Positions 1 through 61,533 of a stretch of 64,000 nt of DNA are shown here, one piece after another. A program made the translations under genes and the position numbers. The DNA is from Strigamia acuminata (taxonomy: Eukaryota). Within the stretch, counting starts at the first letter, position 1. Every line of letters begins with the position of its first letter. The notes below the pieces were generated by a model. That model did not search any database. It was given only the letters and a program-made list of their open reading frames with translations, and was not told where the DNA came from. The stretch spans positions 6,076,001 through 6,140,000 of the forward strand of contig OX442314.1 in NCBI GenBank assembly GCA_949358305.1. Direction: 5' to 3'.

Positions 1-2122
1 AAACTTGACTAAATTACGTAGAACAAAATCGAATTTGTGCTATTGAAAAATCCTGAACTTAGGCAATCTAATTGAGTTAAACAACTAAATTCAGAATTGG
101 AAGTCACAGCATCTCCCAAGATATATCAAGCCTGACAAAAGCATTTATATCCATTAATAGGATAGAAATAAGTGAAAGTGTAAACACTTCCAATTATTTA
201 AGGGGGATTTGTGACAAATTAATAGGGCTATAAATGCCTGATTTTCCACCAGAAGGCGCTGTTGCGCCATTTTGACGGTAATTCTACTGTATTTGTTGTA
301 GAACCAATGTAATTCCTAAATAAAGTTATTTATGGTGTTTTAATTACAAATATGTTCGTTTGATAAGAATAAACAATTCAATCTTCATGATATCGAAATA
401 TCACGGCCGAAATTACAGAGAATCGTCTGCTAAAACCGCATTTGTCAATGCGCAATGTCGCCACTAGATGGCGCTATCGCAAATCAGCGGTAAATTCGAA
501 ATACGGAATTAAATGAATAACAAGATATATATATTAAATAAGTAGTTAATATATTCACGTAGATTATTTAATTGGACAATAATATAAAGATATATTATTG
601 CATTGAATGTTTGGAAGAAGAATTGGTCACATTCTTGGAAATGTGACCTTGCGGATTAAAGGATTAATGTGTGACTTGGGAATGTGTCCTGGGTATCCAC
701 TTCCGGTCCCCGGTATCCATTTCCTGTTTCATGTCAAGGATTAGCATAATCCAAGTTTGCATCTCCGTATCCACTTCCTGCGATACGAGATTGGTGGAAC
801 TTAATCCCACCGAGTATAAAACTCCCTGACAACAGGAAGTTAAGTCAGTTCTTGATTTCTGGTTATTTGGTATGTTCCGCATGTCAAATAACTGTTTCTT
901 ACTCAGGGCATGGGCCTACCGGTCCATGCATAGCATGGCTCTGCTGAGCCATGCAACCCCCGTCAACTGAAGGCGAAGTTCGGACTGTTCATGTTTCCGT
1001 CAAACGGTCTTGCCGAGGAGAAAGCCTCCCGCATAAGTATCCTCGTGGTCGGACAATAGAATCACGTGTGATACCAAAGTATTTAGTAACCGTCAGTAGC
1101 ACTGTTACTGCAAGAGATTGACTCCATCACCTGATGGTGCCAAAGCAGTCTGCATGCAAAACATGCAGTTACCGCCAGTAGCACTATGTGTTTGGGAAAG
1201 TTATATCTCTTCGGTGATGGTGCCAAAGCAGTCTACTTATGAGTAGTATCTCGGGTGATTAATTCTGTTGTGCAGAACTGCGGGCTATATCCCCCTGAAT
1301 ACCAGTGCCGTCTCTCACCGCACTGTTATTTAGGGCACGCGCGATACTGTTCTGCTCAGCAAGGCGAACTTTGACGGCAATTGTGTGTTGCGACGTTTAA
1401 CCTTTATTATATTTTGACAGTCGATAATAGATATTAATTGTTTGAACTTGACAACAAGTAAACAACCGAAGTAAGTCACGAGACTTATTTCACTGTATGA
1501 CGAATCAAATTCGTAACAATAAATTGAATACAATTTATTGAGTTAATTTATTAAACTCACAACATCGCGAATTAAATATAATTCGCAAGCGGAACCTTGG
1601 CGAATAAATAACTTCATTTATTCATTGCCAATTTCCAACCCTAGTTGTGGCGGTGCAGTTAAAAGTCAACCGCACCTCTCGGATCGAACCACGAAGCATT
1701 ACACGGACCATTACACCAGATACGAACCAGGAACGCGATGGAACGCGAAGGAACCAGTTCCACGATTACGACGCGCCGACGGAAGCCGCGAGGACACAGC
1801 CAGCCCGGCTACGTATAGACGACATCTTTAACTCGGTCGAGCGGGCGTTTTGCCGTTCCCGAACCCCGGATCACCAATAACCGTAATCATATTATTTTAG
1901 GGCCATTCGGCCATTTTATTTGTATAGTTTAATTTACTATTAACTTGCCTAATGTCGGCATTAGTCATTTGTATAACTTAGATTTGTTTATATTGTTTGA
2001 TAACAATAAATGTCTTGTTTTGATAACTCTGTTGTATTTATTTTATCTCGTATTATTCACTATTTCACGCGACTTATACCCGGTACTATCATGCGATAGG
2101 AGTTGTGGTCGTCACCGTCACA
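1..2122 (+). mobile_element. 3' end (PPT + 1913-bp 3' LTR at 210-2122) of an LTR element related to the pol-less element at 43405-55807; rest lies left of the window
   Basis: PPT AAGGGGGA at ~200-207, then TGTGAC(210)...GTCACA(2122); LTR and 1-209 are homologous to the reverse complement of 43405-45500; length matches the 1911-bp LTRs there. Predicted TSD AGTA (2123-2126). Confidence 0.88.
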
Positions 2123-4057
2123 AGTAATCCATCACAAATGTCAAATTTCTCCCAAAGCACTTTTAAACATGTCAGGTTGGTTATCAAAATGGTCATCTCC
2201 AGTTTAATTTAGTTGAAACAAATCCAATTGTGCTGGTTGATTTATTGAAGTGCTACATGCTGAGGATGTTTTGCTTTGGCTATTCAAGCAGAATTTGGCA
2301 CAACAAGAATTGTTGATTAACCAATTTGAGGTGAAAAGATGTGTCGTAAAGTCAAATCAAAATAAACCAGATGCAAACTCTAATTTTTTTTTAAATTAAT
2401 TTTTAATTTCTTTCTGTTGGTAATTCTAGTTAAAAAAAACTTTTCTGGGGCAGACAGTCCGTATAAAATGAGAATAGTGTCAAAAGAGCAACCCAGAACC
2501 TGTTCGTCACAATCGGGAGCCCACGCGATCATTTCAGCCAATCACAGTGCCCGGTGCCCAAAACTGCCTTAAAATACATCGGAAAAAAGACCAATTTAAT
2601 TATAAACTTCAAATATAAAAATTGTAAAATATTATTTAAAAAAAACGAGGCAATATTTCATTACCATTTAAACAAATATTTATTGATTTCTAATTACAGA
2701 AATGACATAATCCAACTGCAGAAACACAAATGGCCGCCAAACTAAAAACAAACACATCATCTTAGCGGATGAAACATCGCTCACAACTAGCTAGGATGAC
2801 TTTAGATCGTCTTAATACTGGAGCCAATCGATTACTTGGTATAAAAGTAAACTATTCGATTTTTTTTACCTCATCGAATTCAACAGACGAGAAGCGGAAA
2901 GCAGTCGTTCACAAGCGACGCGATTCGGCAAACGGGACAGAATCACGACGAGGAGACATCTGACCTTCGAACCAACAACGGTAAGCAATTTCTTGGCACA
3001 GAATGAACTTATTGATGTTTATAAATGAATTAAATGATTAATGATTAAATGAATTAATTTTTATTTTGCCGTATGAAAGTACAGTGCACTTTTTAATTTT
3101 ATTCTAACAACAAACCGTTGCTCAATAATTACAATGGATCAAACACCAATTTCAGTTTTTGTGCATTCAAAACAATGTAAGACGTCTGTTACAAAACACG
3201 TGGCTTTAATCCACATATAAATACGATTTATAAACTACTTAGGGAGCTGGATGGGGTGCGCACAAAAAATCGCACTGGGCGCCAATAGACATGGAACCAG
3301 CCCTGAATTTTACAATAATGATTCTTGCTCGTGCATGTTAAACTAACAATGCGTGTTGATTAAAAATTGTGACAAGAATTAAGGTAGAGATAACGTCGAG
3401 AAAAAAATTCGAAAGCAAAAATAGATGAAAATAAATGTGGATTAATGGGCCTGGATATAAATTTATAAGTTTTTTTTTTTAATTTTCTATTATGTGAGTA
3501 CATTATAAATTGTCTTATTGGTGTGAAATATGATAGATACACCAGTAGGTTACAACACTAAAATATTTTAGAAACTGCACTAGGAAAGTGAGTTGCCACA
3601 TGTGAAAAGTGTGTTTCGATTAGTACTTACCGGTAACCTGCTTTTATTGTCTATATTTTCTGCTGTGTACATTCTAATTTAGTCATAACAACAATTTTTG
3701 CTCAATAATTTGAAATGAGTTACATCGATAGGTAAAAGTACAAACTTACACAAGTTACCCAACTAAATATCAAATTGAGAACACAAATGGTTTGATTTTT
3801 GTGCAATCAAACAAATATATGACATGTGTTTTAATTCATTTATAAATACGATGTATAAAGTTCGTATGGAGTTAGAAGGGCACACAAAATCGCACTGGGT
3901 GACAGACTGGAGACAGACAGACTCTGACTTTGAGAATAATCATTTTTGCTGGTGCATGATGAACTAACAATTCGTGATGATAGATTTAGTTTTTGATCTT
4001 ATTTTAATTCTTATATGTGCTTAGCTAATATTAGTAATATTTTATTTACACTTATTA

Positions 4058-7000
4058 TTAGAGTGTAAAACAACAGATCCTATCTTGATTCCGATACCAA
4101 TTGTAAGTTTTTAAAATCCAATCGTACAAAGAGAGAAGTGACATTCCCAAACCCAGTCCTACAATGCTACCGAAATCGCTTAAGAATTGAGATATTGGAT
4201 ATGCTTGTTTCTCTTCTACAATCTCTACAGAGCTATCAGCAAATTGGAACGTTAGTTCTGAGACGTAATCTTGTGGCAATTTAATCTCCCGAAAAAGAAT
4301 TTTGTAAAAAATATGTTTGCAAGGTTGTTTACATTTGCATTGTTTTTGATTCGAGCCATGGTTGCTTAAATACGTGAAATGAGCGGTAGTTACGGCACTT
4401 GTAGTGTTACAAACTGGCAAATTAGGTTTTCCCATGTATGGTAATCTGAAACAAAAAGGAGATTGGTCAAAGATTCCAATGGTTGCAGTTTGTCTGCTGA
4501 AACGGGTTAGGTGTCTTTTGAACAGATTCAATCTGGTGATGCAGCAAATGAATCTGCTTGCAAGTTTGTGTGTGGTTAATGCTAGTGCAAAGACCCATTG
4601 CCAACCGATAACTGACCGCGGATTAGTTGATCAGTCGATGTTTAGAACAGCGAAAATGAAAATAGATGTGATAAAATGGGAGCTGATGTATGAAAAGAAA
4701 TGTGAACTATACCTGCACTTAACATCTCGAAATACATTGTTCTGCCAGCAAGCACTTTTACACTTGAGATAAGCACTTTTGTTCTCTTCACATGGATCGC
4801 GCTTTGTATTTCTTCGTAGGATCTATTTCGTAAAAGGAATCTTAGTATCAGCATTTATTTTATTTATTTCATTTTCTACCTGAATGTCTCGAAGTACTAC
4901 GTCGTTGAACCACCCATAGTTTATGGTCAATGGTGCCAAAATGTTAACTTCCTCTTCCCGATTATTTATGATTAGCTGCGTGTTATTATAATCGAAAATA
5001 TTTATATTAATAATTAAAACTGTAAGTTATGTACACAAAAACTATTTTTTCTATTTTTCTATTCACAATTAGCAATGTGTGTCCGGACCAAACACGAACC
5101 ATTTTTATAACTTTTTTCAGCTTTGGATTATCCTGAGAATTTTTTTGGGTCTTTGTGCTCGAATAAATAGACTTTCTCGTTATCTTATTTAAGAATGCTG
5201 CTTAAAAAGACACCGAGACTGTCAATTTAACACATTTCAGTTTGGTTGCAAAATTACAGGTGATTTTGAGTAAAAATGTTTTTTGACACACCTTTAGCTG
5301 CGGATCACAAGCTTCTATAGGAGGTTGATTTGTAATTAAAGCAATGAAAAGCTTAGTGGTTTTTGTGCTTGTTTTATCTGTAAGACAGCGGAAAGGTCAG
5401 AATTAATTTTCAAATTGGTCTGCAGGAAAGCAATTTTTACGATTAGACAATTCCGGAAAAAAAAGGAACATTGAAAAATCGCAGAATTCAAAATTAGACT
5501 TTGAATACAACCATTAATTAACTAAAATCAGAAATTAATTTTATAATTACCATTTCTTATTTGTGAACAATTACCAAATGGAAGTGAAATAAGACTAGTT
5601 GATGGTTTCTGTAAACATAAAACTTTTATTGTTTGGTTTTTGTTTCAGGAATATAACTTATTATATTACATCATTCTCATTATGGGTTAAAGTAACAAAC
5701 GTCTGGTCGATATTAAGCGATTCCCAGATGTTTTGCAATGACAATCTGCTGTTGAACAATTGCCAGGGTGATATGTTGCCACAAGTTTTATTGGGTTGTT
5801 TAAGTAAGTGTAATCGGGCTTTGTTCATTTCTTCATCCCATTTTTCACCACAAACTGTGACAGAAGGATATTCGGTGTAGCGTCGTTGACTTAATCGAAC
5901 GATTGTTGTGCTCGGTTCATCAAGGTAGTAATTGACACGAATGTGCAGGCAATACAAAGTAAATCCTGCAACAACTAATGCGAATATTAGCTTCAACTTT
6001 TCTATGGCTGCATGTATTTCGGCTTGCTCCTCAGTTTCATCGACTTTTCTTTTGCACATTTCGTACAGACGCTTAATCTTATTGACAGATCTTTTTTGAT
6101 GAATGTTTGATGCAACATAATATAAATACCAAATCATGTCAGGTAATGAGATTACGGATAGTCCAAGAAACAGGCCCAGATTGCCTCCCAAATCTGATAG
6201 TAAGGCAATAACGTCATAAGTGTAGCGTTCTTCATAAACAGTGACTTTCTCATTAGTTATTGCTAATGATAAACTTATCGTTTTATCATTATTAGCTATG
6301 CCTAAATCAGTATATGGTGTAAAAGTTAAATGTTGACAAGGACGTCGACATTGGCAATCGGCAATTGGTTCTTTAAATATAACCACGAACCTAAAATCAT
6401 TATATATATTTTTTGCATCTATTCCTAATTTGCAAAGTGGCAAATCTAACTTCATGAACGGCAATCTTGTATAGAATATATTTAATTAGCTGTTTAATTG
6501 TGATATCAAACAAGAAGCATTTTCTCCACATGTTCTTACCTGCATTTTAGCTTTTTAAATTCGTTATGTAAGCAATTCTGATAGCATTCTCTGTATTCGT
6601 CTTCGTTAGAGCATGAACTGATCGGTGAATTTTGCAATATAAACTATAATTGAAAACATTAAAAGGTGTTGCCCAGTAATATCAAGTCATTAGGTAGATC
6701 TTTACTTTGTTATAACTAAAATTTATTGTATATGTTGAACCAGGATACATGATTAATAAATAAATTTGATATCCAACATTATTGAATGTCAGGTAAACCT
6801 AAGCGCAAAGAGGAAATAATTAATGTAGCAAACGCTATTGTAATTCAATTAAGTTACCTTATAAAAAGGCTCATTGCATATTGAGTCGTAATTTTTGTTT
6901 AAATTCACTGTCAGTAACTTTCCGACAAATGATTTGCTAGAAGCTTCAGCTATGTCAATGAATAATATTAGTGTAACATTAACGGTAGTGATAATGCTTT

Positions 7001-7676
7001 GTAGTTACCAAATCGAAATGTTGAGCATATTCCTAATACACTGTCAGTTTCCGTCTGGACAACAGTATTATTTGAATATCCCTATGCAAAAATAGTTTAA
7101 ATTGTGATTTTTAATTGAATTTCTCTATTGTTTTTTTTTAATTTTAATTTTTACTTTCATTTTTACACTGTTGATGTCATCAGTATTGTTAGTTGCTTTC
7201 CAAAGTGTATCCATATCGTAAGTTGGGTTTTTAATTGTCATTAGTTTTTCAAGCATAATGGCGCATGGAATGGATTCTGATGTTTGTTTATTTGCTATAC
7301 GAATTTCTTCCCAAAGCCTATTCATTTTCTTTGTATTTGTACTTTCGATCACTAAGTCTGGTAAAGTAAAATTTTCTGATCTACTCGTTACGTCGACAGC
7401 TGTAGGATAACTGAAGTAATGCATTATTCTGTCGTATGTCTGATATGTGAGCATGCACATGCAAAATGTGAATAAAAACAGCCAAAGGATGTGATGTTTG
7501 CTCCTCCACCGTTTCCTACTGTTTACGAAATCTTCCAACCCTATTATATCGCAGTTGGGGTTGTTGGCATCATCCTTCATTATTCGGTGAATTGTCAGAC
7601 GGAGTTGTCTTCTCCCTCTTCTGTATCTCCACATCAAATTATTATTTTCCATTATTTTGGTACCTTCCAAGCTCAT
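4058..7676 (-). CDS. Double-repeat DEG/ENaC (pickpocket/ASIC-family) channel, copy 1; 11 exons, ~805 aa
   Basis: Manual GT-AG model: 7676-7155, 7081-7009, 6949-6858, 6798-6706, 6643-6540, 6465-5670, 5608-5551, 5377-5292, 4975-4880, 4822-4713, 4445-4058 = 2418 nt, open throughout. Motifs: TM1 + YFSYPTAVDV, GICSTF, CRLPFM, CQCRRPC, TM2 LLSDLGGNLGLFLGLS; then second TM1 + YPSVTVC, CRLPYM, CKCKQPC, TM2 FLSDFGSIVGLGLGMS. Confidence 0.9.
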
Positions 7677-7905
7677 AGAGTTACTGAATGAGTTTGATCA
7701 AAGTATTTGTTTGCTCCAGCAAACATGCAGAGGGACAGCCAAACTGAAAAACAAAACAACATCAGTATTTTTTTAACATTGGTTGTTGCATACTCCAGTA
7801 AAATCCATTTATTGACTTTTATGCTGTGACCACTTGGCCACCCTCGGTGACCTGCGTCACTCCACACACCGCCTAGTGGCCTCAAGGCCATCCCCCTTGC
7901 GGAGC

Positions 7906-8133
7906 GGTTATGAGCTACAGGACGTTCAACTGCGTGAGTTTCTAGTCTTTCACAAGACATTTCCGTGCATTTTTAGACATTTTGACTACTGATTCGTACC
8001 ACGTGGCACCAGGCCTATTTAAAAATCTCGTGGCAGTAAAAGTTAGTAATTTGAACAATTGAATAATGGCGGATTGAGATTCAATGCGAATTGAAAAGTT
8101 GGAAGACGAAAATTATGCCACTTGGGTATTTAA
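7906..8133 (+). mobile_element. Ty1/copia 5' internal remnant (PBS-like start and gag N-terminus), no LTR visible
   Basis: Starts GGTTATGAGC (copia-type GGTTATGGGCCC start); ATG at 8066 reads MAD*DSMRIEKLEDENYATWVF, resembling the copia gag IEKLxxxNYxxW motif; cut off at TTAA|CCCTT. Confidence 0.6.
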
Positions 8134-8787
8134 CCCTTCCAACCCTAAGATGGGTCTTTTTGTTACATCACTTTAAAAAAAATCATTATTTTTATATGAA
8201 AGAAATTTTTTTTTTATCTGATTTTTGCTGACTTTTCCTTTAAAACATCACTATTTTCACTATATTTCATTTGTTATTCGATGTTCCAAGAGTGAATAAT
8301 TAACCAAATTTACTGTATATTTTTTAATTTCAAAGAATCTCAACTTAATGAAGTTGCAGTTTGTTGTTTGAGTTTAATTTAAATGCAAAACATTTAATGT
8401 GGTATTCTAAGTTACTTTCCAATAATGAATAATTCTCCAGATCTGTAGCTACTGTATAATTTAGAATTTCAAAGAAAATCTAATCTACAAAATTGCAGGT
8501 TCTTGAACAAGTTTAATCTAATGACTGTTAAATGTAAACATTGGCGAGTTTGGCGTGCTGACACGACAGTATCGTGCACACCAAATCATTGACTTTTAGA
8601 TGAAACAGCCTTGTCAACAAAATCGGTGATTGATGATTAGAGTAGAATTCAAAATTCGAAAGTACAATTGTGACATAAATCGTCAAAATCATACACGGGT
8701 TTAAATCCGCTCATATCCACTCATCAACATAATCCAATAAGAACCACCACTTTCCCTTTTTGTCTTTTCATGTCGATTCATATCGTT

Positions 8788-9965
8788 TGTTACGATCTCA
8801 AATGTTCACTTCATTTGTGGAGAAGTTTTTCTACCACGTTTTTAAAATATTATTTATATTTTAACCATAATCATTAGAATTGTGTTTTTTGCCGTGCACC
8901 TGTTGCGCTTTTGGGCAATTGGCCCAGAAGCTGTAACGGCTGCCCTGGCATTTTGAGCCCTGGATTGGGGCGTTGCTAAGTCAATCCCCAAATTTTGCAC
9001 CGTTGCTAGGGCTGAAGCGTGCCTTGGCACACGCCACGCCTGCGCACTGGCCGTTTTCCGGCCATATTCCGAGCAATAATTCGAATTATTACTCACTCTT
9101 TGCATCACACTCATACCGTTCACACCGACACAGCTTTGTTCAACCCAAAAACACTGTTTTGTCCGTGACTCGTGAGTTTTGCCAAGTTTCAACCCGATTT
9201 GTTTGGACCAACGTTCAAACGAATCACTTTCCGAGCCGCGAAGACGACGCACGACGGCTCAAACCACCGTCGTTCCCGCCGCCGCCCGAAGACCAACGCG
9301 CCCACGCCGTTGAAGATCGACGCCAGCCAGCCGCCGAGGATTGCAGAGCCATCGTCGCCGCTCCTCGACCTGTTGACGACGATTCCGATTCAGATTGTAG
9401 CGGATCTCCAGTCAGGTTTTAACGATCGGCGGTACCCGCCGTTTGACTACTTGTCTCCAACGGAAATCTCCCGTTGCAATCTAGGGTTTAACCCAAGATT
9501 TCCCGTCTTGTCAGGCTTACCAGCCGACACTTTTTGTGAAGTCTTTCGGCTTCACGCTTCCTTTCTCACTTCGCAGAATTTGCGCGGCGACGTGTCGCCA
9601 TTTCTGCACTGCTTTTTCCCGCCCGAAGGAGTCCCGCGCTGCTTCGAGCACGTCGCCTTCTACGCCGACGATCTTATCCTCATAGAACCCATTTTATTAA
9701 CATTCACTTCAATTGAACCTGTAATTAACGCTCAATAAATTGATTAACTGTTTGATTTAAAATAACTAAACTAGCCTTTATTCGAGATCAAATCCCTAGA
9801 CACCGACTTAACGGCTAACCCACCCGATAGAAGACCTATAAACGGCATTCAACTGCTTCCACAGGTGAACGCCGGGATCTCTTGCAATTGGAAAAATCCC
9901 ATAGTGACTAAATATAAATTTAGTGTTGTTGTGAAAAGTCAATTGGAACCATCAGGAACGCAACA
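8788..9965 (+). mobile_element. Solo LTR (1178 bp)
   Basis: TGTTACG...CGCAACA termini, 4-bp TSD CGTT (8784-8787, 9966-9969), AATAAA near 9735; absent from the homologous repeat copy at ~27480. Strand inferred from the polyA signal only. Confidence 0.8.
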
Positions 9966-11565
9966 CGTTTCAATGTCTTTTCATGTCATTTTTATGTCTT
10001 TTATGTCTGTTCATGTCATTTTTATGTCTTTTATGTCTGTTCATGTCATTTTACGTCTATTTATGTCTTTTCATGTTATTTTTATGTCTTTTATGTCTGT
10101 TCATGTAATTTTACGTATTTTTATGGCTTTTCATGTCATTTTTACGTCTTTTTATGTCTTTTATATCATTTTATGTCTTTTATATCTTTTTCATATCTTT
10201 TCATGTCATCTTTATGACTCTTCATGTTCTATTTATGTCCTTTTTGTTTTTTATGTCTCTGGGAAGCAGGCCGAGCTATCATCCTTACCCGAAAACAACA
10301 AGACGATGCTGTACCTTCAATTTTTTAAAAATGCAATTTTATAAACATTGTGGAAAAATTGGAATACAATACCATTTCAGCTGGAATGCTGTGCCATTAT
10401 TTTTCCATGCAAATATGAACACGATTATAGTATTCACTTGGCTGCGATGTGTTGCTTCAAATTGACGCCTGGTCCATGCAGAGGCCGGGGTCCGTTTAAA
10501 CGGCGGGGGTCACGAGCAATAAAAGCAATAACTGTATAAACTGGCGTTTAAGAGAGTGTGGGGATGTATGAGATCGAGGGGGACAACAAAAGCCAACATT
10601 CAGCAGGAGTTTTGGGCGATATTGGATGACGCTGAATCGGAAGTGTCGAATTTTTGTCATAAATTATCAGAAGTAACCCTTTGTTCCTTTGATTTTGTAT
10701 TTGAAAACCTCAAAAAACACAATAAAATTGTTCTCGACCCAAACAGACATGAAATCGACCAGAAAATCGATAAATTAGTTAATACAACTACCGTCGTTTT
10801 TCAACATAAATACGATACTTGAGAAAATTCAAAATAAGCACTGTTGCGTCTCAGTGAAAAGCTAAACATGTACAGTGCAAATTATTCCTCAAGAAGATTA
10901 ACAAATTAAAAAAAGGTACTCACACACTATTGGCTGTTCAGTTGCAAAAATCCACTCATTTAGTAATTTCATATAAACACATTTCTGATTTCTTCTGTGA
11001 ATTTTGTCCGCATGGTCGTGGCACTACGGTATCGTGTAGAAATTGCGTCGGGTTGTTTTATGGCTGGCTTCTCTGCTTGGCACCCATTCAATCTGTTTGC
11101 GACATTGGTCGTAAGATCTCGGATTTTGGGCTCATGACTTGAGCTTGGAATAAGACTTCAGTCTATTAAATTCTAAACTTGTTTGCTACTACAGCTTGGC
11201 TCGGCTAACTAGCATCTGAAATGCTATTGCTTTCTTTGCAATAAAAGTTTAAACAAGTTAGTGAATTTTACGATGTTTTTTATTCGTACTTGAAAAGGAC
11301 ATTAATCATTCGTGAATTATTTTTCTGGTGTTTTAATAATCAATACTGTAGAGTTTTGCAAAAGAAACATTAATAATATTTTCAAAGAAATACGATTACA
11401 TCTTCCATGCAATTGACACAAATGCCAGGAGCGAGTGAGCAATATTTCTTCCGTGCATATTAAAGGAGTTATAACATGAAAAATACAACAGGACTTAAAA
11501 TTATGTATTTTTATACGTAGTTATCACATTTCCAGTCAAATTTTCCATCAAAAATTTGAAAACTG
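9966..11565. repeat. Unclassified dispersed repeat, copy A (pieces ~8700-8787, 9966-11565, 16135-16275), with TTTTATGTC low-complexity array
   Basis: Colinear with 27421-29345 once the two solo LTRs and the Harbinger are removed. Confidence 0.8.
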
Positions 11566-12536
11566 TGCTGCGATCCGGGTTTTATCACACTTAATTTCTA
11601 ATAAATCAAGTGGAAACCGCAGGTGAATGCTTAAAAAGTCTTATATTGCGGCCTTAAAATTATCTAGGGTTAATTTTGGAGAGAGAAATAAAAAGACAGT
11701 TTATTTTAATATAAAAATCACACAAAGCTTTTATTCGTTAAAATACAATAAGATATATTATTAAAATGCGAGAAATATCACAAATGCGACAAGTCGCGAG
11801 ATAAATGAGCGGGAAACAAAGGATAGGCTTGCAACGACTGTTGCAAGCTAAAAGCGTCAGAAATGGCGCTTTACAACACACAGTTGTCGGGAAAATATCC
11901 TTGTTCTTTTCCTCTCGACACTCACGTACGATGGTCCAAATTGACGATGGTTCACGTGAGTCTACTGCTCGGCGTGCGACGGCTCGTGGGCGGTGATTGA
12001 CGGCGGGCAGGCTTCCGATTCCTCGTTCGATGGCGGTGGCTGACGTTCGCGTGACAGCGACAGCGATGGTACACGGGATACGGGAACTTCTCGTTCCGAT
12101 TGCTGGAATTAGCTACGGCTAATTCAAGCAGAATTGCTGGCTTTGTACGTTGTTACAAAGCAAGCTGGTGAAACTTGGAATACACGGTCCACTATCAATA
12201 CTTTTTGTCAGGAGCAGAAAAGCAGTAGGCGCATTCGAAAAGTCATTTAAACGAGTGTAAATGTGTTTACACTCGTTTATCCACGACATTTACACGAATT
12301 AATTCGTGTAAATGTCGTTTACACTGGTTAAACGGAAACGGACCGCACGCCACGTGTAAATTTCTTTTACACGAACATTTGGCGTGTAAACCAACAATTT
12401 TGGCGGCCATCTTGGATTGTCGCTTCGAAACTAAGTACAACCATCTACAACCATCGTGAGTATTCTTATATATATATATATATATATATATATACCGGTA
12501 TAACAATAATCTGATAGATTTATATTGTTAAAGGAA

Positions 12537-14154
12537 ATGCCACCTCGTAAACGCAGAACAACTGCGTTGGTTTCCATAGCAAAGAAGCGTGCCAAAAATG
12601 ACGAACTCGACTTAAACATGCGTTTGGCCGCATGGATTATTGAAAATCCCTATCGTGAAAATAAGGTATATTATTGTATTATTGTATTATTGTGTATTAA
12701 AAATGGCCCGTATCATTTTCTCATTTTCTCACATATCGATGGAAATAGCTTTTCCGTTCATCAAAAACAATTATTTTTGCATATAAAATACGCATTTATT
12801 TGCTAAACAAATGCATTTATTTGCTAAACAAATGCATTTTTTTGTTAAACAACTACATTTTTGAATTAAAATTTTAGTTTTGGAATTAAAATTCGAGTTT
12901 TGGAATTAAAATTCGAGTTTTGGAATTAAAATTTGAGTTTTGGAATTATATTTGGAATTTTGTTTTTTTCAGGGAGCACTGACAGGTGGAGAAAAAAAAA
13001 AGGAGTGGTTACGACGCATGCATGAAGACAACGGAGTATTTGGTCGGACAACTGATGCCATGAGTTCAAAGGAGCGCTTTTTGAAGGAAAAATACATGAA
13101 AGCCAAAAAATGGTCAGAAGAAACTGGCCAAGGTGTTTTGGAGGCTAATGGTCAGGAGTCATTTAAAGGTATAATATTTTTAGTAGTAATGTTAAAAGTA
13201 AATAACATATTTTAAAATTATTTTTTAGATGCACTTCTAAAAATCTGCCCGTGGTTCGACATCTTACATGAAGAACTGAGGGAGTCTCAGCAGCACAATC
13301 CGTCATATTCTAATGACAGTGGGAATACTATTCAAACTTCAGCAGTTAGTATTCTGGATGGAATTTTTAGTGGTAAGCAAATTAAGTTTGGTACGGTAAT
13401 TAATTAATTTGTTATTAATTTTGTCAATTATTGTTTAAAAGGTGATCCACCAGCATATGAAGAGAATGATTTAAATCATTCTTCTTCAGCACGTGAGAAT
13501 GATTTAAATCATTCTTCTTCAGCACGTGAGAATGATTTAAATCATTCTTCTTCAGCACATGAGAATGATTTATATCAGCCAATCCCAGGTAATATAATTT
13601 TTATACTTGTCTTTCATGCGACCAAACCTTTAATTTTTTTAATTTATTATAATATTATTATTATTATTGTTATTATTTTATTATTTTATTACTTTTATTT
13701 TATTTTAGTGTCACCAGAACAAGAGGATAACCAACTATTGGACAATGATGATATTACTCCAGTTGAGATCAATTCTCAACGTTCACGAAAGACTTTTATA
13801 GAGTCACTTCCACAGCCAAATAGAAAAGCAAAATCTCTAACCAAAGCTCATGGAATGAATCAGGTGTTCTTAGAACTTCAAGAAAAGAAGAATGAAGAAA
13901 AAAAACAATTGCTGTCGGAAAATAAAGCCATAGAATTAATGAAAATTAATTTGGAAAAAGAAAAATGGAGCTTTGATTGCAATTTGAAAACCGAAACATT
14001 TACATGGGAAAAAGAAAAATGGCTATTAGAAAAAAATGCAAAGGAAGATGCCATTAAATTAGAACAAAAACATGAAAAAGAAATGTCTGCTCTAAGAATT
14101 CAGGAGTTAGAACTCCAATTAAAAATCAAAGAGGCGGAATTAAAATTGAAATAA
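12537..14154 (+). CDS. Harbinger Myb/SANT-like DNA-binding partner protein, 5 exons
   Basis: Exons 12537-12665, 12973-13168, 13229-13372, 13442-13588, 13709-14154 join in frame; basic N-terminus PPRKRR, KICPWFDILHE motif, 3x ENDLNHSSSA repeat, C-terminal coiled coil. Confidence 0.8.
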
Positions 14155-14256
14155 AATAAATTATGTGATATTTTAAAAATTTTTTTATTTATTTAAATCA
14201 AATACAAATCATTTATAAAATTTATTAAACTGGTTCTTCTGAGAACACCTTCTTTT

Positions 14257-15656
14257 TTAAGCTTGTCTTTCATTTGTTTCAACAAAAACAGGAATTTCAT
14301 CCAAACATTCATTTTCATCAAGACTCTCAAAATTTGTTTCATTTTCAAACCAATTGTCATTAATTAAAAGGTTGTGTAAAATTAAACAAGCCCAAACCCA
14401 TTCCCAGGCATACGTGACTCCATTATTTGCTTGGGAAATTTTCATACTTAAACCATTTAAGCTATTAAACCTACATTTTAAGTAACCAAACACGTGTTCT
14501 ACAATAATTCGATTCTTACAAATAACATTGTTATATTTCTTTTGTCTAGATGTATGCAAGAGAGATTGACGAAATGGAGTAATCATGTGTTTGCTAAGGG
14601 CATAAGCAGGATCACCAATTATGTATTCATTTTCTCCAAAATACAAATGTGGTTTTTTGTAAATATTCATGGATTTAAAGACTGTCATATCATGCACCTA
14701 TATTATAAAAATTAAAATCATAAAAACAATTTATCATTCATATATTTTTACTGACTTTGCCAGGAAATCCTAATTGGAATCCAATTATTTCTTTTCTAAA
14801 ATTAACTATTGCAGCCAAATTTAATGAGTAAAATGATTTCCTGTTGTAGTAGCTAATTCCATTTTCAACAGGCTCAGATACTAGCCGAATGTGTGACCCG
14901 TCTATGAATCCAACGCAATTAGGAACACCTAATCATAAATTTATTTGTTAGCATTAAACATATATACAATTTTATAAACAACCTTTTCTCCCCATTTCTG
15001 AAGTTATTTCTGATCGTTCAGATGCAGTTGGCCACTTTATAAATCGACTACTGAGTGAAGTGATAGCCATAATAACCCTTTTAGTACAATCTGTTACGGC
15101 ACCGCCATCAGATATACCAAATCGACTAGCTACCTCAACTATTGATGAGCTGTTTCCACAGTGACCAAACCTATAGTATAAGAAATGGAAACATCTAATA
15201 TAAATAACATTTCAAAATTATATGCAGACTAACCTGTAGAGGGCAATTAATAATTGCATATAGACTTCAATTTGTGGTCTTCCTTTCTTTGCTTTAAATA
15301 CTTCATGGTCTTGTACAAGAAGTAATAAATGCGCGAAAGATTCAGGTGTTGTTCTTGCGTATCGACGAAATCGTTGATCCCCTAGATGACCAATTATGCT
15401 AACAAACCCATGATTTTTAGGCACAGGTTTTAGTGCATTGATATATCTCTTTGAATATAACATTGCAAAAAGCTGAAAATACATAAATATTTAATGTTTA
15501 TGTTGATCACTTCTGTAATTACAAATAACTAACCTCATAATGTTCATTTAAAACTTCATCTTCCTCATCTGAATTATCTGACAGCAAATATTTTATGGCT
15601 AAACATTTGCTCCATTGCTCTAGTACAGCTTCTTTACATATTACTGTAGACGCCAT
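14257..15656 (-). CDS. Harbinger/HARBI1-like DDE transposase (multi-exon)
   Basis: ATG 15656; motifs GVPNCVGFIDGSHI, YYNRKSFYSLN, HDMTVF, IIGDPAY, RIIVEHVFGYLKCRF. The C-terminus may carry a late frameshift. Confidence 0.9.
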
Positions 15657-16717
15657 TTTAATAAGACTCATGGGAAATTCCTGTGTAAATTCAAGTGCAA
15701 ATTTATTTACACTTGAATTTACACTTGAAATTTATTTTAAACTCAAAAAGTGGGTCGTTTAACTTGAAATTTACACTACCAGTTGCACTGGTCGTTTAGT
15801 GCAAATTAGTTTTCGAATGCGCCTAGTGATGTTTGTGGTTTGTGTATTTAGTCAAGAGTCTCGATTGAAGCTTGGGCGCGAGCCCGGCACGCTTCAATAT
15901 TGCGCAGAAAATCTGCCCAATTAGCTGGAACTGGTGCAACAGGGGATTATTACACCATATTGCACCATAACGATTAATAACCGTTTTCACCCTGGACAAC
16001 CTGAGGTGATATGTGCCTAGAGAGGATTTCTCCCCTCGGTCACATGATCTGACTTGGCGTGTGCCACAGTCAAATTAATTAGAAGACAATTAATTTTATC
16101 TTCTAATTTGGTGAAATATTTTGAGATCACCACAACTGTGAAAATTTCGTCAATATTGTCCTTTGCGCTTCACTGCCTTGCTTCAAAATCACAATTCTGT
16201 ATTGGTGAGTACTCTGTTCATGTGCAGCTCTGACACAAAATTCTACAAACAATGATTGGTTCACAGACTTTGAACAATGAGTGGTGCACAGTGATTTCAG
16301 TAATGAATGTTGTGTACATGTTTTATGTTGTAGGAACTAAACATGTACTGTACGGCCACCAATTGAAGGTGAAGCTGCCACTGTTAATGTGCGCTACTAC
16401 GATTTCGTATTATGAGGAATTTCCACTCGGATGAGTCACCAGTACTCATGTGTGGTTATGCCATCATATCTGGTGCCAAAGCAGGTTAGCAACTGCGAGT
16501 AGCACTGTGTTGTGTATAAAGACAGGAATCCCAGCGCGTATGCTGCCAAAATAGTCTAATTTCGTGAGTAGCACCATTTGTGATGAGGCTGATGTGTGTG
16601 ATGAGGGGAAGCCATTTTCGTCCTGCATGGTGTATGTTTTGTTGCATGACATGTTACAATGGCCAGGATGCGATGGTTAAAGTGATCGAGTGAAATTGAC
16701 ATGACCAGTGGAATGAG

Positions 16718-17505
16718 TAAAGATGCTATTTTTGTGGAAAATAAATTTTGTTGAAAATGTTTTTAAAAGTGTGGATAGTGCAAATGGATCATTTTAACAA
16801 CAAAATTTTTGAAATTGGAGGTGGTTTTTTGTCCGCAATTGCCGCAATTGGACCGTAATGCCGCAATTTTGCGGAAAATCCGCAATTTTGGGGAAAATCC
16901 GCAATTGGTCAATATTTGGGCGTCTTTTAGAAAAATTTAGATTACGTACGTATTACGTATACGTAATATGGCCGTATCGGATACGTCAACACGACTTTTT
17001 CGTATATAAACACTCGGTATGCATTGGTATTGCCACAACAATCCTCGTAACCAGCCAACACAACGCGTCAAAACTTCAAATTTTGTTTAAAAACTTTAAA
17101 TTTTGTTTGAAAACTTCAACTTTTGTTTAAAAACTTCAAATTTCGTTTAAAAACTTCAAATTTCGTTTGAAAACTTCAAATTTTGTTTAAAAACTGCAAA
17201 TTTTGTTTAAAAACTTCAAATTTCATTTAAAAACTTCAAATTTCGTTTGAAAACTTCAAATTTCGTTTGAAAACTTTAAATTTCGTTTAAAAACTTTAAA
17301 CTGCCTTTAAAAACTTCAAATTTTCTTTAAAAACTTCAAATTCCCTTTAAAAACTTCAAATTTTGTATAAAACCTTGAAATTTTGGTCAAAAACTTCCCG
17401 GATGAGCCCGCAATAGGTCCGCAATAAGTCCGCAAAATGCCGTTTTTTAATGCCGCTTTCCACCCGCAATTTCACTGTTTTAAGTCCGCAAAAATAGCAT
17501 CTTTA
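16718..17505. mobile_element. hAT-type MITE (788 bp) with internal 20-bp minisatellite
   Basis: TIR TAAAGATGCTATTTTTG; 8-bp TSD GGAATGAG (16710-16717, 17506-17513); subterminal CCGCAA repeats. Confidence 0.9.
17070..17395. repeat. 20-bp tandem repeat AAAACTTCAAATTTYGTTTR, ~16 copies
   Basis: Directly visible 20-nt periodicity. Confidence 0.95.
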
Positions 17506-21600: not shown

Positions 21601-22352
21601 TTGCAAATAGTTGTGCTCGAATTTTTAAAATCTAGGCCCGTACTAATTCTTCATTCTTCATTAATTGCATTGATTGTTGCCCCAGATGCCCGAGTCGTTA
21701 GTGCCATATGTCGTTCGTTTCTCTCGCAATTTGCGCCCTTTCCCCATGAATAATACGTGATGTGATAAAAAAGTTATTACCTTCCTTGCGTGCTTCCATC
21801 AGTGTTTGTCCTTCTTCAATTATTGTGGCTCCCTTTTTCTTGAATAACACATCCTTTTCATTTTGCACAATTTTTGCCACTGACATCAAACTCATCACGA
21901 TTTTTGGCACGTGCAATACATTGTGTAATACAATTGTTCTCGTACTTGCTTCTGTTGTGATGCGCACGCTGCCAATTCCGATCGCTTCCATTTTCGCGTC
22001 TTCATCTGCTATTTTGATCCAGCTGTGATGTGTTCGATACGTCTCAAATGCGTGACGTGATTTGACCATGTGACTGGTCGCTCCCGAGTCGAGTACCCAT
22101 GTTAATGCGTGTTCGTCACTAATCCGCGCCTCCTCGTCCGCCGTCTCGTTCGTCTCGTCGTCGTCTATTTCGAATGCGCACAGGTTGCTCTGCTCTTCGG
22201 TTGATTGCGGTTTCTTTCCTCGTTTGTCATATTTTTTATTTTTTCTCTCTCGTTTTGGTTTCTTGCAGTCGGCTGCTTTGTACCCGGATCTCTCACAATT
22301 AAAGCAAAACATGGCGCCGGGCTTGTTGCAGTTGAAGCAGTTGAAGCACTTT
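18690..22352 (-). mobile_element. Degenerate, 5'-truncated Ty1/copia retrotransposon
   Basis: Order Zn-knuckle, PR (WVLDSGATSHM), IN (WH*RLGH, HVDLMGP, RSDNGG, NGVAER), RT (YVDD), RH (SSTESE); PPT GAGGGGAA then 3' LTR TGTTGGGG starting at 18836. Left boundary approximate. Confidence 0.9.
18882..22350 (-). pseudogene. copia gag-pol polyprotein broken by stops and frameshifts
   Basis: Fragments 21698-22312, 21291-21530, 20509-21306, 18882-20408; premature stop in WH*RLGH; frameshift at DNGG. Confidence 0.9.
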
Positions 22353-22871
22353 CATTTTTATACTGTCGATGTCATCAGTATTGTTAGTTGCTTTCCAAAG
22401 CGTATCCATATCGTAAGTTGCGTTTTCAATTTTCATTAGTGCATCAAGCATGTGATCGCATGAAATGGATCCTGATGTTTGTTTATTTGCTATACGAATT
22501 TCTTCCCAAAGCCTATTCATTTTCTTTGTGTCTGTACTCCAGACCATTAAGTCTGGTAAAGTAACATTTTCTGATCTACTCGTTAGGTCGACAGCTGTAG
22601 GATAACTGAAGTAATGCATTATTCTGTCGTATGTTTGATATGAGAACATGCACGTGCAAAATGAGAATAAAAGCAGCCAAAAGATGTGATGTTTGCTCCT
22701 CCAACGTTTCCTATTGTTGACGAATTCTTCCAACCCAATTATATCGCAGTTGGGTTTGTTGGCATCATCCTTCATTAATCGGTGAATTGTCAGACGGAGT
22801 TGTCTTTTCCCTCTTTTGTATCTCCACATCAAATTATTATTTTCCATTATTTTGGTATCTTCCAAGCTCAT
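22350..22871 (-). pseudogene. DEG/ENaC copy 2: exon 1 only, fused to copia gag
   Basis: Close paralog of 7155-7676; upstream flank 22872-23090 matches 7677-7905; homology ends at the exon-1 donor position. Confidence 0.88.
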
Positions 22872-34333: not shown

Positions 34334-34378
34334 TTAGTGCATTGCTCGTTGCGAGGAAATAAAACCATGTCTTGGCCT

Positions 34379-35310: not shown

Positions 35311-35531
35311 TTTTTCGGAAATTAATTTGATAATTTGATTTCACGGCTGCCTCGAGGTGATCGTCGCTTAGCCGGAGATGACAGTGATAAGTGTGGGTCG
35401 GGTTAGAGGTTAACTATTAGTCTCATGTCATCTTTGATTGGTTTGGCCAATTAAGACGCATTGTGGGACGTAACAGGTGTCCCCCCTGTGGTTGTTTTTA
35501 TCGATTGTTCGAGACAATGGCTGGAGTTGCT

Positions 35532-42457: not shown

Positions 42458-42531
42458 TTTCTTGCGATATAATGATCGGTCGAAAGATCCCGGTTATTAT
42501 TTAAAGTTTTGTCGTAAGGTTAGCAAATTCT

Positions 42532-42549
42532 ATCCCGGACGGGCCCCCA
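42532..42549 (-). promoter_or_regulatory. Primer-binding site, tRNA-Pro
   Basis: TGGGGGCCCGTCCGGGAT, one mismatch to the canonical tRNA-Pro PBS TGGGGGCTCGTCCGGGAT, 2 nt from the 5' LTR. Confidence 0.9.
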
Positions 42550-45500: not shown

Positions 45501-45909
45501 TAATAGCCTAAATTCAAGTCCAGAATTTATTTCCAAGTCTTCTTTTTGAAGAAACTTTCGTCATACATAAAATCATCATTTGTGTTATCACAAAATATTT
45601 ATTTCATATGCCTAGTCAGATGTATCGCTATAAATATACAATAAATAGCTTTTAGATGATAAGAGTTGACAATTAAGAAATCATAATTGTCCCCCTTAAT
45701 TGTCATGACCGGAGTCACTTGGTATTCTTTGTACAATTGACTAATTTAATTAAACTAGTTGTCTTAATAATGTAGCATTACTTTTCAAAATTTTGTTAAT
45801 TCTAACTTTTATATTTTGTCCCCCTTTTCTTTAGAAGAGAGGTCATGATTTTTAGAAGAGGATTTTCTGTTTACACTATAATCGGGGAATCTTTGTGTAT
45901 CATATCATG

Positions 45910-56871: not shown

Positions 56872-59800
56872 TCAACAGCCCACATTTTGTTTCTGATACC
56901 AATTATAAGTTTTTAAAATCCAATCGTACAAAGAGAGAAGTGACATTCCCAAGCCCAGTCCTAGAATGCTACCGAAATCGCTTAAGAATTGAGATATTGG
57001 ATATGCCCGTTTCTCTTCTACAATCTCAACAGAGCTATCAGCAAATTGGAATATTATTATTAGGCCTATATTTTTTGGCAATTTATTCTCCCGAAAAATA
57101 AATTTGTAAAAAATATTTTTGCAAGGTTGTTTACATTTGCATTGTTTTTGATTCGAGTCAAGGTTGCTTAAATACGTGAAATGAGCGGTAGTTACGGCAC
57201 TTGTAGTGTTGCAAACTGGCAAATTAGCTTTTCCCATGTATGGTAATCTGAAACAAAGAAGAGATTGGTTAAAGATGCAAATAGTTGCAGTTTATCTGCT
57301 GAAAAGGGTTCGGTGTTTTTCGAACAGATTCAATCTGGTGATGCCGCAAATGAATCTGTAATTGCTAACATGTCAAAATAAGCTTGCAAGTTTGTGTGTG
57401 GTTAATGCTAGTGCAATGATCCATTGCCAACCGAAAACTGACCGCGGATTAGCTGATCAGTCGACGTTTAAAACGGCGAAAATAAAAATAGATGTGATAA
57501 AATTGGAGCTGATGCATGAAAAGAAATGTGAACTATACCTGCACTTAACACCTCGAAATAGATTGTTATGCCAGCAAGCACTTTTACACTTGAGATAAGC
57601 ACTTTTGTTCTCTTCACATGGATCGCGCTTTGTATTTCTTCGTACGATCTATTTCGTAAAAGGAATCTTAGTATCAGCATTTATAAATTTATTTCATTTT
57701 CTACCTGAACGTCTTGAAGTACTACATCGTTGACACATGCATAGTTTACGGTCAATGGTGTTAAAATGTTAACTTCCTCTTTCTGACTATTTATGATTAG
57801 CTGCGTGTTATTATAATCCAAAGTATTTATATTAATAATTAATACTGTATGTGCACAGAAAATATTTTTTATATTTTTATATTGACAATTAGGAATACGT
57901 GTGTATCCGAACCAAACACGAACTATTTTTATGACTTTGTTTGCTTCTTTGTGCTTGTATAAATAGACTTTCTCGTTATCTTATTAAAGGTCAAGTGCAC
58001 TGAGTGGGTTTTATTTTTTTCTGATAGAGCCTAATATAAAAATATTTTTCATGTTAAAAAAAATAAAATTTGGGTCTTTATCACTGTTTAACACTAGAAC
58101 TGCCAGAGGGGTCATTTTGACCCGTCTGGCAGTTTCAAACAGCTGTAGCAATAAACCCAATGGCTTTACAATGCTGTTAATTTTTGACTTTTACTAATTT
58201 ATGATGGTTTACATCATAAATCAGAGAACTGCCGGAACGGGTCAAAATGACCCGTTTTAATAACTTGAACAATGCGTACACAAAACTTGCACAAAACGTG
58301 CTTAAATCGTGCAAAATACATAAACAATACGTGTATACAACGTTTTGGCATCAAATTGATTCAATAACAGGCGAAACATGTGAAGAAAATCGCAAAACAA
58401 AAATTGATAGTTTTTATAAAACCTGATAAAATTTAATTTTCGTTTTTTATCTTACCAGGTTTTATAAAAACCATCAATTTTTGTTTTGCTATTTTCTTCA
58501 CATGTTTCGCCTGTTATTGAATCATTTTGATGGCAAAACGTTGTATACACGTATTGTTTATGTATTTTGCACGATTCGTGCACATTTTGTGCACGTTATG
58601 TGTACGCATTGTTCAAGTTATTAAAACGGGTCATTTTGACCCGTTTCGGCAGTTCTAGGTAGTGGGATATTCCGGCAGTTCTAGTGTTAATAACAATTGA
58701 AAAAGTTGACTTTTTCAATGTGATGCATCATGGTTGTTGGCTGGATGTCCGACGTCATCAGTTCTGTGGTGGTTGGTGGTGGTGTTGTTGCGCATGCGCA
58801 TCAAACTGCGCATGCGCAAAAGACAGTTTTAAACTCCCACACTCAAGGTCAGCCATTATGAATCCACCCTAGGCTCGGAACTAGTTCCAGGTCAACTGAA
58901 CTAGAGAACTGACAACGTCATACTCCCATGATTCTTTGCCTTGTCAACACCCGATATTGCGATTGTTATTAAACAATGATAAAGGCCCAAATTTTATTTT
59001 TTTTTAACATAAAAACTAATTTTTTATTAGGCTCTATCAGAAAAAAAATAAAACCCACTCAGTGCACTTGACCTTTAAAGAATGCTGCTTAAAAAGACAC
59101 CGACACTGTCAATTTAACGCATTCCATTTTGGTTGCAAAATTTTAGGTGATTTTGAGTAAAAATATTTTTTTTACACACCTTTAGCTGCGGATCACAAGC
59201 TTCTGCAGGAGTTAAATATCTACTAAAATCAATGAAAAGCTTAGTGGTTTTTGTGCCTGTTTTATCTGTAAGACAGCGAAAAGGTCAGAATTAATTTTCA
59301 AATTCGTCTGCCGGAAAACAATTTTTAGTTAAATAATTCCGAAAAAAAGAAACATTGAAAAACCCCAGAATTCAAAAGTAGACTTTGAATACAACCATTA
59401 ATTAACTAAAATCAGAAATTAATTTTGTAAATTACCATTCCTTATTTGTGAACAATTGCCAAATGGAAGTGAAATAAAATTAGTTGATATTACCTGTAAA
59501 CATAAAACTTTTATTGTTTGGGTTTGGTTTGAGAAATGTGACTTAAGTTACATCATTCCCAATATGGCTAAAAGTTAACGCTTGGTCGATACTAAGTGAT
59601 TCCCAGATGTTTAGTAATGACAAATTGCTGTTGAACAATTGCCAGGGTGATATATTGCTACAGGTTTTATTGGGTTGTTTCAGTAAGTGTAATCGGGCTT
59701 TGAGCATTTCTTCATTTCTTTTTTCACCACAAACTGTGACAGAAGGAAATTCGGTGTAGCGTCGTTGACTCATTCGAATGATTCTCATGCCAGGTTCATC

Positions 59801-61533
59801 CAGATAGTAATTGACACGAATGTGCAGGCAATACAAAGTAAATCCTGCAACAACTAACACGAATATTAACTTCCACTTTTCTAAGACTGTGTGTATTTTG
59901 GTTTGCTCTTCAGATTCATCGACTTTTTTTTTGCACATTTCATACAGACGTCTCATCTTATTGACGGATCTTTTTCTGTGAGTGTATGAAGCAACGTAAT
60001 ATAAATACCAAATGATGTCAGGTAATGAGATTACGGATAGTCCAAGAAACAGGCCCAGATTGCCTCCTAAATCCGATAGTAAGGCAATAACGTCATATGA
60101 GTACCGTTCTTCATAAACAGTGACTTTTTCATCAGTTATTGCTAATGATACAGTCATCGTTTTATTATCATTAGCTATGCCTAAATCAGTATATGGTGTA
60201 AAAGTTATGTGTTGACAAGGAAGTTGACATCCGCAATGAGCAATTGGTTCTGCAAATCTAACTAAGTTCTGAATATGAGAATACATCTGATATGTTTCAT
60301 TTCCTAATTTGCAAAGTGGCAAATCTGACTTCATGAACTGAAATCTTGTAATCAGTATATTTAATTAGCTGATTAATTGTGATACCAAACAAGAAGCATT
60401 TTCACCACATGAGTTTACCTGCAAGTTAGCTTTTTAATTTGGTTAAGTAAGCAATTCCGATAGCATTCTCTGTATTCGTCTTCGTTAGAGCATGAACTGA
60501 TCGGTGAATTTTGCAATATGAACTACAATTGAATAAATTAAAAGCTGTTGCCCAGGAATTTAAGTCTGGGCAAAACTTTACTTTGTTACACCTAAAATTT
60601 ATTTTAATTGTTGAATCAGGATACATCACAGATAAAAGATAGGGATTTCCAACATTATTGAATGTCAGATAAAACTAAGGGCAAAGAAGAAAATTAATGC
60701 AGCAATTGCTATTGTAATTTAATTAAGTTACCCAATAATTAGTCCTATTGCATATCAAGTCGTAATTTTTTTTAAAATTTACTGTCAGTACCTTTCCAAC
60801 AAATGATTTGGTTGAAGCTTCAGCTGTGTCAATGAATAATATTAGTGTAACAATGTAGGTAGTGATAAATTTTTGTTTGTAGTTACCAAATCGAAATGTT
60901 GAGCATATTCCGAATGCACTGTTAGTTTCCGTCTGAACAACAGTAGTATTTGAATATCCCTATGCAAATATAGTTTAAATTGTGATTTTTAACTGAATTT
61001 CTCTATTGTTTTTTTTTAATTTGAATTTTTACTTTCATTTTTACATTGTCAATGTCATCAGTATTGTTAGTTGCTTTCCAAAGTGTATCCATATCGTAAG
61101 TTGGGTTTTCAATTCTCATTAGTGCATCAAGCATGTAACGGCATGAAATGGTTTCTGATTTTCGTTTATTTGCTGTAGGAGTTTCTTCCCAAAGCCTATT
61201 CATTTTCTTTGTATTTGAACTACACACCATTAAGTCTGGTAAAGTAACATTTTCTGATCTACTCATTACGTCGACAGCTGTAGGATAACTGAAGTAATGC
61301 ATTATTCTGTCGTATGTCTGATATGTGAGCATGCACATGCAAAATGTGAATAAAAGTAGCCAAAGGATGTGTTGTTTGCTTCTCCAACGTTTCCTACTGT
61401 TTACGAAATCTTCCAACCCAATTATATCGCAGTTGGGTTTGTTGGCATCATCCTTCATTAATCGGTGAATTGTCAGACGCAGTTTTTTTTTCATCAGTCC
61501 ATTTTTCCTTATCAAATAATTATTCTTCATCAT
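56872..61533 (-). CDS. Double-repeat DEG/ENaC channel, copy 3; same 11-exon structure
   Basis: Exons homologous to copy 1 are open with conserved GT-AG sites; the 59543-60334 exon again links TM2 (GLFLGLS) to a second TM1 + FPSVTVC; MITEs sit in intron 8. Confidence 0.88.
57988..59074. mobile_element. Kolobok-like MITE in ENaC intron
   Basis: TTAA TSD with AGG...CCT termini; ~90-bp TIR AGGTCAAGTGCACTGAGTGGG...; empty site at ~5185-5197 in copy 1. Confidence 0.85.
58092..58686. mobile_element. piggyBac-family MITE (595 bp) with internal ~200-bp foldback
   Basis: TTAA TSD; CACTAGAACTGCC termini and GGTCAAAATGACC palindromes related to the element at 50538-53507; inverted arms span 58225-58656. 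Confidence 0.9.

Follow-up and report, generated by a model that had tools for sequence, protein, structure and literature searches.

Two intact paralogous genes, A and B, in the 64-kb window analyzed here (the whole stretch of Strigamia acuminata DNA) each encode a single chain of two DEG/ENaC repeats and four transmembrane segments (TMs), and so depart from the canonical one repeat and two TMs per polypeptide. DEG/ENaC subunits usually have two TMs each and assemble as trimers. As judged from sequence, such double genes are old; at least one centipede lineage has expanded them, and forms with three repeats have evolved convergently in other lineages. The two-repeat architecture is new; already known are the family and unnamed models in UniProt.

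Gene A and its fused junction

Gene A comprises 11 exons on the minus strand (7676-4058) that encode 805 aa with no internal stop, in a model built from window coordinates. All 10 of its introns are GT-AG, and an AATAAA occurs at 4046, past the stop codon. Its exons are:

7155..7676, minus strand: exon 1, N-terminus, repeat-1 TM1, and beginning of the first extracellular domain (ECD1)
7009..7081, minus strand: exon 2, repeat-1 GxC motif
6858..6949, minus strand: exon 3
6706..6798, minus strand: exon 4
6540..6643, minus strand: exon 5, repeat-1 Cys-rich thumb
5670..6465, minus strand: exon 6, the junction exon, with the end of ECD1, repeat-1 TM2 (GLS), a ~45-aa linker, repeat-2 TM1, and the beginning of ECD2
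5551..5608, minus strand: exon 7, repeat-2 GxC motif
5292..5377, minus strand: exon 8
4880..4975, minus strand: exon 9
4713..4822, minus strand: exon 10, repeat-2 thumb
4058..4445, minus strand: exon 11, end of ECD2, repeat-2 TM2 (GMS), and stop codon at 4060-4058

The first-pass annotation held that exon 6 runs without a stop from repeat-1 TM2 through the linker into repeat-2 TM1. We confirmed this: the exon is one open frame with two ASC stretches, the C-terminal end of one repeat followed by the N-terminal start of the next. An annotation artifact was ruled out as the source of the fusion in genes A and B, as the junction is read directly within a single exon. A six-frame HMM scan found no additional (third) repeat upstream or downstream of either gene. 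Since introns were covered in the two listed sequencing runs and exon-boundary joints were absent among the joints listed, these runs behave as DNA and have no bearing on expression. We infer that the junction is carried on one mRNA and into one uncleaved protein.

Hydropathy and Cys positions showed that the layout of TM1, a large Cys-rich extracellular domain, and TM2 occurs twice per chain. At a threshold of 1.25, four hydropathy peaks were found in A (19-residue windows from 63, 391, 452, and 770) and four in B; at 1.5, repeat-1 TM1 of A and repeat-2 TM2 of B were narrowly missed. Each of the six large exon frames in the two genes scored above the curated cut-off of Pfam ASC (PF00858; 37-66 bits vs. 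23.6), and our own HMM placed non-overlapping ASC-type domains at 39-434 and 452-797. The four TMs and two ASC domains predicted by the first-pass annotation were thus recovered. Its description of the repeats as very divergent also holds, with 25% identity between repeats 1 and 2 over 275 columns. Each repeat has five introns in phases 0-1-0-0-2, in genes A and B alike, as had been claimed; their supposedly equivalent positions, measured against conserved cysteines, proved identical for only three of the five pairs (C+5, C-11, and directly after CR), the other two being shifted by one residue and by five across a variable loop.

Both genes carry the TM2 G-x-S motif in each repeat; it reads GLS in the first and GMS in the second. 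By eye, neither repeat has the pre-TM1 His-Gly re-entrant motif: IG occupies its likely place in repeat 1, and most of the pre-TM1 segment is gone from repeat 2. This motif is common, not universal, being carried by 43% of 578 insect PPKs (PMC8438182; this and the other articles cited by number were covered in part).

Gene B, copy C, and their surroundings

The paralog reported at 56872-61533 has the same fused junction, and its 11 exons contain no internal stop; all of its introns begin with GT when the end of exon 1 is set at 61033. A third copy, copy C, was absent from the first-pass annotation; its remaining exons are absent within the 64-kb window. The features are:

56872..61533, minus strand: gene B, intact paralog, 793 aa, 78% identical to A
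61533-61033, 60959-60887, 60823-60732, 60674-60582, and 60522-60419, minus strand: gene B exons 1-5
60344-59552, minus strand: gene B exon 6, the junction exon
59493-59436, 59265-59180, 57800-57705, 57648-57539, and 57247-56872, minus strand: gene B exons 7-11
22350..22865, minus strand: copy C, exon 1 alone, ending at the first-intron point against a copia-type gag-pol region
2434..7904, minus strand: duplicated genomic unit carrying gene A, at least 5.3 kb

The copia-type gag-pol region (18882-22351) begins directly where exon 1 of copy C ends, a geometry pointing to a deletion that took the rest of the gene and the start of the element. The counterpart of the duplicated unit around gene B (31053-61658) is split by two nested LTR elements and a 1.09-kb intron insertion. 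The latter (57986-59078) lies in intron 8 of gene B and has inverted ends; contigs of both runs join across it, indicating other copies or alleles without the insertion. A Gypsy-type LTR element (31373-43181) has 630-bp LTRs that are 99.7% identical, a 4-bp target duplication, gag and pol, and a third frame of 712 aa (32195-34333) without a Pfam match. The element at 43405-55807, whose summed depth in the DNA runs is very high, has 1.9-kb TG...CA terminal repeats that are identical to each other; inside are a frame of 365 aa that fits no clear Pfam family and a nested transposase of the piggyBac type (51320-53218). A short element (24011-25731) consists of 512-bp TG...CA direct repeats, 99.8% identical, with ~700 bp in between, and a long palindromic element, also of very high summed depth, lies just upstream of gene B (61832-62607).

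The summed depth of the two runs over gene A was 207-18,525 per bin vs. 13-63 in the last bin outside the unit, and up to 24 contigs of the two runs were found at one site in the gene A region. Depth and contig number, which do not amount to a copy number, hint at many close copies in the organism.

Two-repeat relatives in Strigamia maritima

Exon 6 matched Strigamia maritima T1JEH2 best, at 48% over 98% of its length, a match that by itself points to a geophilomorph centipede as the source of the window; T1JEH2 is 44% identical to gene A over residues 22-705. A phmmer search gave 292 matches, 150 of them listed, and 30 of these 150, picked for junction-spanning matches or length, were identified by record: S. 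maritima 'Uncharacterized' models account for 21, and decapod, midge, spider, and leech sequences are among the remaining nine. Among the matches listed, 17 S. maritima double models share the junction (e.g., UniProt T1JEH2, T1JD34, and T1ITL7). In 20 of the 20 double-class relatives measured (the 17 named S. maritima models, one ENA record, and two others), the first GxS and the wrist motif that follows it were 74-101 aa apart, and in A and B they are 79 apart. Merged gene models would not be expected to vary so little in this distance. The second TM2 is kept in five relatives, of which four end 18-25 aa past it and one (P0014) 154 aa past it, compared with 26 in A and 22 in B; chains ending shortly after the second TM2, as A and B do, argue that the class is truly two-repeat. 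The doubles thus appear, on their sequences, to be a large, radiated centipede gene family, beyond what the first-pass annotation saw.

Nearly all repeat-1 TM2s share a D-x-G-G-x-L-G consensus; repeat 2 is variable there, and its TM2 is degenerate across the family. Single-repeat relatives occur in the same clade as the doubles, as database sequences of unspecified species. Word-based homologue searches (P0001; alignment A1) returned the query alone and have no bearing on other myriapods, and the Atlas rows shown for the S. maritima relative P0010 were ASC clusters of single-repeat size.

Age and origin of the fusion

In a 62-row tree, all 13 first repeats fell in one clade (SH-aLRT 94), while the 12 second repeats were unresolved, with one long branch outside. 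Of the repeat-1 vs. repeat-2 separation sought in the first-pass annotation, the repeat-1 clade was recovered and repeat-2 monophyly is allowed. Repeat 1 of A and B grouped with repeat 1 of P0001/4/5, and their repeat 2 with that of P0001/6 (SH-aLRT 100 each). We then compared topologies by an AU test on 36 rows, from which two gappy repeat-1 rows, P0009, most three-repeat rows, and the decapods were left out; with 5000 replicates, under the recommended 10,000, forcing separate repeat-1 and repeat-2 clades cost 1.5 log-likelihood units (p-AU 0.49), and forcing the two repeats of the A subfamily to pair cost 32.6 (p-AU 0.017). Recent internal duplication was rejected on the latter value. These sequence comparisons fit one old fusion followed by whole-gene duplications, and would support the view that the fused genes were already divergent DEG/ENaC genes when joined. 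The old head-to-tail fusion of two genes proposed earlier is thus backed by the intron pattern, the junction shared by 17 models, and the AU test.

Selection on the pore, the junction, and the outer domains

Nei-Gojobori dN/dS between A and B over 776 codons was 0.91 for the whole gene (95% CI 0.71-1.24) and 0.19 for the four TMs jointly, a deficit by Fisher's test (p = 9e-5). For TM2 the values were low in both repeats, at 0.11 (repeat 1) and 0.18 (repeat 2), which shows that neither one is a passenger. The linker had a dN/dS of 0.39, and the TM2-linker-TM1 core showed a dN deficit indicative of purifying selection (Fisher p = 0.001). In simulations at the observed A/B divergence, the entire CDS stayed stop-free in 0 of 5000 replicates, and exon 6 by itself in 37 of 5000. 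Extracellular dN/dS was 1.61 in domain 1 and 1.08 in domain 2, a non-significant excess (p = 0.09 for domain 1 and 0.12 for both). The open frame through the junction is therefore being maintained, and the pore is fixed while the outer domains change fast. Given the gene-wide value and the non-significant extracellular excess, relaxed selection fits the outer domains as well as tuning does.

Predicted fold

Structure was modeled for P0010, a relative 23-25% identical to the window protein; most double-class relatives measured are 19-26% identical to P0010. AlphaFold2, run on a 21-row alignment, folded both repeats (pLDDT 69, pTM 0.66) and predicted a mostly helical linker at pLDDT <50. In Foldseek this model matched two centipede channels best, BRTNaC1 (TM by target 0.69) and PDPNaC1 (0.73), and the hand-shaped DEG/ENaC fold was recognized in it with an E of 6.6e-19 to BRTNaC1. 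The same two proteins were the best PDB sequence matches of exon 6 (BRTNaC1, 8YMR, E 2e-10; PDPNaC1, 9JF7, E 1e-8). Their PDB entries have three chains each, and the BRTNaC1-like P0077 falls inside or adjoining the clade of doubles. Complex folding of P0010 72-783 with a second copy of its own first extracellular domain scored 0.01 in a run that did not use the alignment, and speaks neither for nor against any assembly.

Three-repeat chains

Two S. maritima sequences (P0007 and P0008) contain two junctions each; their repeats resemble one another and those of P0009 and P0016, and together they make up a clade of their own. These four sequences represent a second, younger S. maritima concatemer lineage, with at least three similar repeats and common linkers. 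An annotation artifact keeps some probability for the Strigamia three-repeat models, which were examined as protein models.

Decapod chains of 1000-1240 aa also have three repeats (Penaeus XP_069977668, Petrolisthes, and Halocaridina); six-TM chains include P0050/P0154 (the Penaeus cluster), P0035, P0061, P0102, P0159, and P0101. P0050 has six hydrophobic peaks, and in most members the middle repeat has a shrunken extracellular domain. A 1001-aa chain is encoded by each of five Logan contigs (3.4-4.0 kb) and aligns gap-free to residues 93-1093 of the Penaeus protein at 98.9-99.7%. Since these contigs, which may be RNA or DNA, carry it, the Penaeus chain is a continuous frame independent of eukaryotic gene modeling. 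The separate clades suggest independent origins for the three-repeat chains of Strigamia and those of decapods, and the decapod chain is possibly a natural single-chain trimer. AlphaFold2 on it gave a pLDDT of 46 and a pTM of 0.30, too poor to use.

The Oedothorax (P0033), Helobdella (P0068), and Polypedilum (P0032) models may be merged tandem genes, since their own repeats are each other's closest relatives. P0032, from Polypedilum vanderplanki, is a 1460-aa model of three full repeats with very short links, either a real chain or merged tandem genes.

Assembly of the double chains

We tentatively favor, at a little short of an even chance, a 2+1 assembly in which the chain contributes two neighboring subunits to a trimeric pore and a single-repeat protein is the third; the whole would probably be a variable sensory receptor. 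Both repeats would line one cation pore as neighbors, and the separate subunit would fill the third slot, with many variable doubles drawing on a shared partner. The fusion would fix the order and pairing of two different subunits, and the fast-changing extracellular domains would tune the stimulus while the pore stays the same. Speaking for this arrangement are the G-x-S found in either TM2, the purifying selection that acts on TMs and junction alike, and single-repeat relatives within the clade, as well as three-repeat chains, which fit the trimer exactly and seem to have two separate origins, one in Strigamia and one in decapods. Engineered ASIC chains of 2, 3, or 4 linked subunits pass current (PMC4529235), and heterotrimers linked in a 2:1 ratio function (PMC4899722). 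Weighing against it are the lack of any single-repeat DEG/ENaC partner gene within the 64-kb window, the gene-wide dN/dS of 0.91, the missing His-Gly motif, the degenerate repeat-2 TM2, and the lower-mass bands seen along with the currents of the engineered dimer, which cleavage could explain (PMC4529235). A chemical-sensing role of the doubles is probable by analogy, in view of how the family has expanded, of the pattern of selection, and of the part that BRTNaC1 and PDPNaC1, the two characterized centipede relatives, play in the antenna (PMC9974506, PMC12714832).

The main rival, which we rank above cleavage, a non-conducting protein, and a tetramer, is that double chains self-assemble, either as three chains forming two linked pores (R1-R2-R1 and R2-R1-R2) or as two chains forming one pore with a spare repeat left outside. 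We consider this rather unlikely: the ~45-aa, mostly helical linker may be short for bridging two pores, and, going by the independent three-repeat chains, the usual effect of fusion would be to order subunits inside a single pore. However, no partner gene would be needed, and none is present in the window; the family grew as doubles (17 S. maritima models, with the hint of many close copies here); and an engineered 2x ASIC1a chain yields currents alone (PMC4529235). Cleavage of the natural linker, or a translation restart within it, would make the gene a polyprotein or bicistronic unit giving two ordinary subunits in equal amounts, and the linker is indeed the least conserved part of the core (68% A/B identity) and contains three KR pairs. 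This is nevertheless improbable, since the linker is predicted to be cytosolic and, by established topology, out of reach of furin-type proteases; a linker Met is absent as a conserved residue in relatives; neither A nor B has a poly(A) signal or GT(A/G)A splice donor there; and repeat 2 is without most of its pre-TM1 segment, as expected if it was never free. The stoichiometry problem raised in the first-pass annotation stands, and among its options cleavage or internal re-initiation looks the least likely. We give still less weight to a non-conducting receptor or scaffold, or to young duplicates drifting to loss. The gene-wide dN/dS, the broken copy C, the heavy transposon context, and the absent His-Gly motif would suit such a fate, but not the TM dN/dS of 0.19, coding sequences that stayed stop-free where 0 of 5000 simulations did, or the G-x-S kept in both TM2s. 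Least probable of all is a pseudo-four-fold pore of two chains (R1-R2-R1-R2). Two repeats would tile four slots exactly and one biochemical study argued for ASIC1a tetramers (PMC4529235), but the nearest solved relatives have three chains per entry, PDPNaC1 being described as a homotrimer, and a review gives trimers for ASIC1 and ENaC (PMC10148893).

A broader reading, held more loosely than the 2+1 assembly, is that arthropod concatemers had at least three origins. The decapod chains and one Strigamia lineage would be single-chain pseudo-trimers, and the soil-centipede doubles a sensory radiation with an assembly unseen in the superfamily, in which either variable pairs of subunits draw on a common third one or three chains tie two pores together as a double-barreled channel. 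The assembly would be new because two-repeat chains cannot tile a trimer.

Significance and comparison with known systems

We found no description of natural DEG/ENaC concatemers in the literature searched, largely open-access main texts that also took in parts of PMC5203786, PMC7067487, and 10.1101/2022.06.28.497943, nor any paper on the S. maritima double models, although supplementary tables of gene families might list them; within that literature, DEG/ENaC concatemers have so far been laboratory tools only. Of 578 insect PPKs, 46 have 3-5 predicted TMs, and the portion of that survey covered holds no passage on fusion (PMC8438182); the covered portion of the main text of PMC4244043 mentions neither amiloride, sodium channel, ppk, nor PF00858. 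Since such models are easily dismissed as merged annotations, family surveys may have missed the doubles. That a two-repeat chain has persisted intact in nature during a long radiation puts the strictness of the DEG/ENaC trimer to the test, and the doubles show which pore residues may differ at fixed positions, with a canonical TM2 in repeat 1 and a relaxed one in repeat 2. They also point to an unrecognized, expanded receptor family in soil centipedes.

The S. maritima doubles have the architecture and junction of A and B, but they are automated models, many of them truncated or mis-spliced and named only 'Uncharacterized protein'. The Scolopendra antennal channels BRTNaC1 and PDPNaC1 have a similarly compact extracellular domain; however, they are single-repeat proteins of 431 and 421 aa with two TMs, whereas A and B combine two different repeats and four TMs. 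The three-repeat chains of decapods and S. maritima (T1IU28, T1IZL2, and T1IL99) are, like A and B, natural head-to-tail chains with short TM2-to-TM1 links, and in the decapod chains the degenerate TM2 sits in the last repeat, as in the doubles; they differ in that three repeats could fill a trimer unaided. Engineered ASIC concatemers resemble the natural doubles in layout, being joined head to tail via cytosolic termini, and they conduct, but they are artificial and include full termini and a synthetic linker. In other channel superfamilies (four repeats in Nav/Cav, two in TPC and K2P), gene fusion fixes subunit order and pore segments diverge asymmetrically. The repeat number of those channels divides their four-fold symmetry, whereas the two repeats of A and B do not divide a trimer.
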